Source: a virus
Length of the DNA: 64,000 nucleotides
IMG/VR virus record: IMGVR_UViG_3300045988_159010
Direction: 5' to 3' (one strand)
The DNA is not shown here. The text below continues a report on this DNA, generated by a model with database tools.

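Novelty: stop-codon recoding is known in gut phages, but this window gives a clean homology-based calibration of the amino acid.
How to check it: 1. Re-call genes with translation table 15 versus 11 and compare coding density and ORF length distributions.
2. Align the recoded MetK, Dcm and rSAM products to homologues and tabulate which residue aligns with each TAG.
3. Look for TAG depletion in the GC-rich block.
4. Mass spectrometry of virions, if available.
What would refute it: Any of the following:
- Homology alignments place the TAG positions at gaps or ends of domains.
- The joined proteins lack the downstream conserved segments.
- A second frame explains the downstream motifs.
Basis: partly seen in the sequence, partly recalled or inferred. 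Interest (0 to 1): 0.8.

Follow-up and report, generated by a model that had tools for sequence, protein, structure and literature searches.

In-frame TAG codons within protein-family matches

As listed in the table below, TAG codons are crossed by protein-family matches in six genes, and neither TAA nor TGA was found in the frames of these genes. In MetK the single TAG is codon 21 (38943-38941); all three MetK Pfam domains were matched above cut-offs in the 707-codon ORF, and the N-terminal match (aa 3-102) spans this codon. The original prediction had placed TAGs also inside the radical SAM, GIY-YIG, Dcm motif I and tail-fibre N-domain regions, and a family match runs across TAG in each of them.

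To express how improbable the open frames are, we took the TAA/TGA density in the other frames of each gene as background; over 17 TAG-containing genes the combined chance of the frames staying open after the first TAG was 10^-172. In one of them, a 233-codon ORF of 13.5% GC, TAG occurs six times and TAA never. Gene calling pointed the same way: treating TAG as sense raised the share of the window covered by a greedy non-overlapping gene set from 78.8% (table 11) to 88.6%. Cruder ORF statistics did not discriminate between the stop-codon readings. All 80 genes counted, with Shine-Dalgarno-supported starts, end in TAA (59) or TGA (21), in agreement with the termination claimed earlier for TAG-containing frames.

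Features of the window by position (empty cells, no entry)
Feature	Position	Strand	Remarks
tRNA-like genes	7334-7421; 11475-11545	minus	conserved in relatives
HDV-like (theta-type) ribozyme candidates	8005-8060; 9364-9431; ~10339-10397	minus	
Conserved tRNA	8271-8341	minus	Rfam 48.5 bits; overlooked by ARAGORN
Spacer between two tRNAs	8522-8595	minus	72 nt; identical in L001
HNH cassettes	8641-9508; 11659-12564	minus	disrupted tRNA gene and replacement tRNA with same anticodon
GIY-YIG endonuclease	9691-10314		2 TAGs; one aligns with Q in the GIYQIKN motif of I-TevI
Second GIY-YIG endonuclease			TAG-spanning protein-family match
Interrupted tRNA genes	10992-11124; 14840-14988	minus	tRNA-like elements in anticodon loop
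Dcm methyltransferase			TAG-spanning match, PF00145 over aa 5-313
Tail-fibre gene, Mtd_N domain			TAG-spanning match
RiPP-type cassette	16112-18077	minus	CXXX-repeat radical SAM maturase (TIGR04115) and precursor
CXXX-repeat radical SAM maturase			8 TAGs; TIGR04115 418.9 bits (cut-off 350), aa 33-397
Paralogous proteins (476-572 aa)	18758-20188; 22678-24321; 29697-31415	minus	
RNA-repair-type genes	25633-26412; 26610-27425; 34065-34604; 44570-45979	minus	
MetK ORF	ATG 39003 to TAA 36882-36880	minus	707 codons, 1 TAG; AGGAGG 8 nt upstream of ATG; Pfam match across TAG
Probable intein in MetK	37267-38232	minus	322 codons, between HGGG and FSGKDPSKVD

TAG most likely encodes glutamine

The ensemble of alignments, and not MetK alone, makes glutamine the well-supported reading of TAG. 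Among 120 full-length homologues of the radical SAM maturase, one TAG column holds Q in 118 and another in 80; a third is split between E (70) and Q (48), and the remaining ones are variable polar. L087, L090 and L092, more distant recoded relatives with about 65% protein identity, supply 51 residues that align with TAG, including 17 Q, 8 K, 7 R and 5 E. With a substitution table built from these same alignments, Q was the maximum-likelihood residue (logL -121.6), ahead of R (-154.0) and K (-156.7), which agrees with the original assignment.

That assignment had been anchored in MetK. Its description of the gene was accurate: the ORF aligns to Escherichia coli MetK with E = 5e-107, TAG stands opposite Q of GHPDKIADQISDAVLD, and the codon is kept in all three relatives covering the position. 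As an anchor for glutamine, MetK is weaker than was held, the same column in 77 other viral MetKs being R in 50, Q in 25 and I in one, with the motif missing in one. The proposed tabulation of residues at TAG sites favored Q in two maturase columns but not throughout, with mostly R in other viral MetKs and F of M.HhaI opposite the Dcm TAG. Termination was conceivable at two TAGs near C-termini (fibre gene, codon 864; 5537-6610, codon 354), but relatives have CAA at both positions, and the alignments run on beyond them.

No match to the lineage was found among GenBank phage records; it is present in IMG/VR as contigs of 105-188 kb, 88-96% identical to the window. In-frame TAGs of the window are TAG in 56 of 63 comparisons with three IMG/VR assemblies. 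Internal changes include codon 67 of the maturase (to CAG), codon 82 of gene 24952-25539 (to CAA) and, in one case, TAT; the reverse exchange, CAG in the window and TAG in one relative, was also seen. The Dcm gene with an adjacent 208-aa gene (12955-14530, minus) is an insertion relative to L002 and L003, and region 15422-18450 is swapped for ~620 nt in the relative L001.

Use of TAG is mosaic

TAG occurs in 18 of the 80 genes, with codon totals of 53 TAG, 190 CAA and 158 CAG. Per 1000 codons its density is 2.6 at 1-7.3 kb (tail fibres), 7.0 at 7.3-15.1 kb (tRNA array and endonucleases), 3.9 at 15.1-34.7 kb, 0.58 at 34.7-48.3 kb, 40 in the two plus-strand genes of 48.3-50.1 kb and 0.51 at 50.1-64 kb. 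Since the density varies this strongly by segment, the earlier scope of TAG as sense "across the AT-rich 50 kb" was too broad. The TAG-poor block at 50-64 kb encodes nucleoside deoxyribosyltransferase, deoxyribonucleotidase-like and antitoxin-like genes. MetK also sits in a TAG-poor block, yet carries its one TAG at codon 21, which fits a possible gate on expression.

Genes in which TAG makes up more of the Gln-type codons tend to have a smaller CAG share (rho = -0.70, p = 2e-6), and TAG density is lower with higher GC (rho = -0.36). AT-rich genes (endonucleases, the maturase, 15424-16125 at 13.5% GC) use CAA and TAG with almost no CAG, and CAG is often preferred in TAG-free genes. The opposite use of TAG and CAG may stem from C-to-T drift at CAG codons, or the TAG-rich genes may have come separately, as mobile genes.

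Candidate decoders of TAG

Code-15 phages in the literature rely on a phage tRNA(CUA), sometimes together with RF2 (bioRxiv 10.1101/2021.08.26.457843). No CUA anticodon was detected in the window by ARAGORN with or without introns, Rfam, two custom anticodon-arm scans or a split-tRNA scan, nor in the tRNA arrays of the closest relatives, within 10 kb past each window end in these, or in the arrays of relatives ~65% identical at the protein level. A tRNA(CUA) does occur in sister lineages, which have a 72-76% identical homologue of one small protein in the window's tail module. In their homologous array it lies directly behind tRNA-Val(UAC); it has 1:72 unpaired and discriminator G73, and at least 120 viral contigs contain its anticodon arm CGGTCTCTAAAACCG. 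Most simply, the suppressor tRNA would be encoded in the >100 kb of the ~189-kb genome outside the scanned parts.

Two elements of the array were considered as alternatives. The 15-nt anticodon arm of the conserved tRNA at 8271-8341 (TTGAA-TTTAA-TTCAA) folds either with a 5-nt loop or as a 4-bp stem with loop AUUUAAU, which could give anticodon UUA; the acceptor stem has G3:U70 and A73, and the distant relative L087 (19419-19492) shows compensatory stem changes. We judged it unlikely to be the decoder because it is fused to tRNA-Met in the TAG-using relative L091. The spacer at 8522-8595, with hairpin GGGTT-TTCTAGA-AGCCT and outer pairings ATATTC/GAATAT and TAGGG/CCCTA, was ruled out as a tRNA and may be a ribozyme or processing element.

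Interrupted tRNA genes and RNA-repair-type genes

The tRNA array has unusual features. The elements interrupting two of its genes (56 and 73 nt) have their own 7-bp acceptor-like stem, T-arm-like hairpin, discriminator base and CCA. Exact excision of one, including CCA, restores CUUUUAA and yields a tRNA-Lys(UUU) with no difference from the gene that L003 carries without interruption (21391-21465). Excision of the other gives CUUAUAA of tRNA-Ile(UAU), the arm being identical to an uninterrupted homologue in another phage (L116, 6097-6171); in the more distant L087 (13658-13803) an unrelated insert two positions off restores the same Ile loop. ARAGORN labels the two genes wrongly, as Met(CAU) and Trp(CCA). 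A literature search for tRNA genes interrupted by such tRNA-like elements did not find the arrangement, and they may be intervening sequences of a kind not yet described for tRNA genes.

The RNA-repair-type genes, which may bear on the interrupted tRNAs, encode a calcineurin-like phosphoesterase, the nucleotidyltransferase RlaP (RNA repair pathway pol-beta family), an AAA_33 kinase-like (P-loop) protein, as well as an RNA ligase that has a PHA02142 OB-fold domain. It is an attractive idea that tRNA-processing enzymes would excise the elements and the halves would then be ligated.

Cassette 11659-12564 interrupts a type I tRNA(UAG) of 76 nt, which has lost 17 nt including the anticodon loop; a type II tRNA-Leu(UAG) comes with the insert (11948-12032) and lies in frame within the HNH ORF. 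In cassette 8641-9508 a divergent tRNA-Ala(UGC), a ribozyme-like sequence and the HNH gene have taken the place of the 5′ half of a tRNA-Ala(UGC), the 3′ remnant of which lies at 8596-8640. Each ribozyme candidate begins with the final base of a tRNA (tRNA-Met, tRNA-Ala or tRNA-Glu), and none of these tRNAs has an encoded CCA; two candidates give weak RF02682 matches (24.5-24.9 bits, below the threshold of 44) and the third is known by likeness to these (AGATACA...CCTTCACGCGGTGTATCT). Of the conserved tRNA-like genes, the 88-nt one (7334-7421) is of type II and has the anticodon CCA, G73 and a D arm like that of Tyr/Ser tRNAs; the other is a 71-nt element with G33 and loop UGAAAGA, vs. UGGCGUA in the related sequence L086.

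MetK insert and other genes

MetK aligns to the E. coli protein in two stretches, aa 3-258 and 578-700, separated by a probable intein overlooked in the original prediction. The insert begins with Cys and ends with Gly-Asn, and the residue at +1 is Cys. Besides the window, the relative L008 has it, whereas the relatives L006 and L007 lack exactly this stretch and read HGGG(A/C)FSGK. The intein profile TIGR01445 (E = 0.028) and block F of the PhoCDC21-1 intein match weakly, and a Pfam search of the insert gave no match. Inteins occur in some homologous radical SAM maturases elsewhere (P0083, 768 aa). The RiPP-type precursor is ~200 aa long with ~25 CxxxC repeats, and the cassette is missing from L001. 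The three paralogues have a common core SxHPLDYxxxSxN...W(E/R)SC and C-terminal CxxC zinc-ribbon repeats; they gave no match in Pfam and PHROGs, and tblastn of the 22678-24321 protein against GenBank phages found no homologue.

Comparison with known recoded phages

As had been predicted, standard-code annotation truncates or fragments genes: JGI/IMG calls give a 655-aa MetK and maturase fragments of 63 and 132 aa. The TAG finding is thus useful for annotation. The exact 707-aa MetK with Q at TAG is already in Logan/ENA protein collections (contigs up to 189,525 nt), as is a maturase protein with Q at 8/8 TAG sites. Low-GC gut phages with TAG-to-Gln recoding were described by Borges et al. (bioRxiv 10.1101/2021.08.26.457843), such recoding was validated by metaproteomics (PMC9523058), and TAG recoding was reported in another gut phage group (PMC10607447). 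Because of these reports and the public proteins, the recoding observed here, although correct, is a further example of a known phenomenon. Borges et al. found that use of the recoded codon is mosaic, that structural genes and a homing endonuclease are preferentially recoded, and that the suppressor tRNA often goes undetected; recoding in the window is mosaic, as in the published cases.
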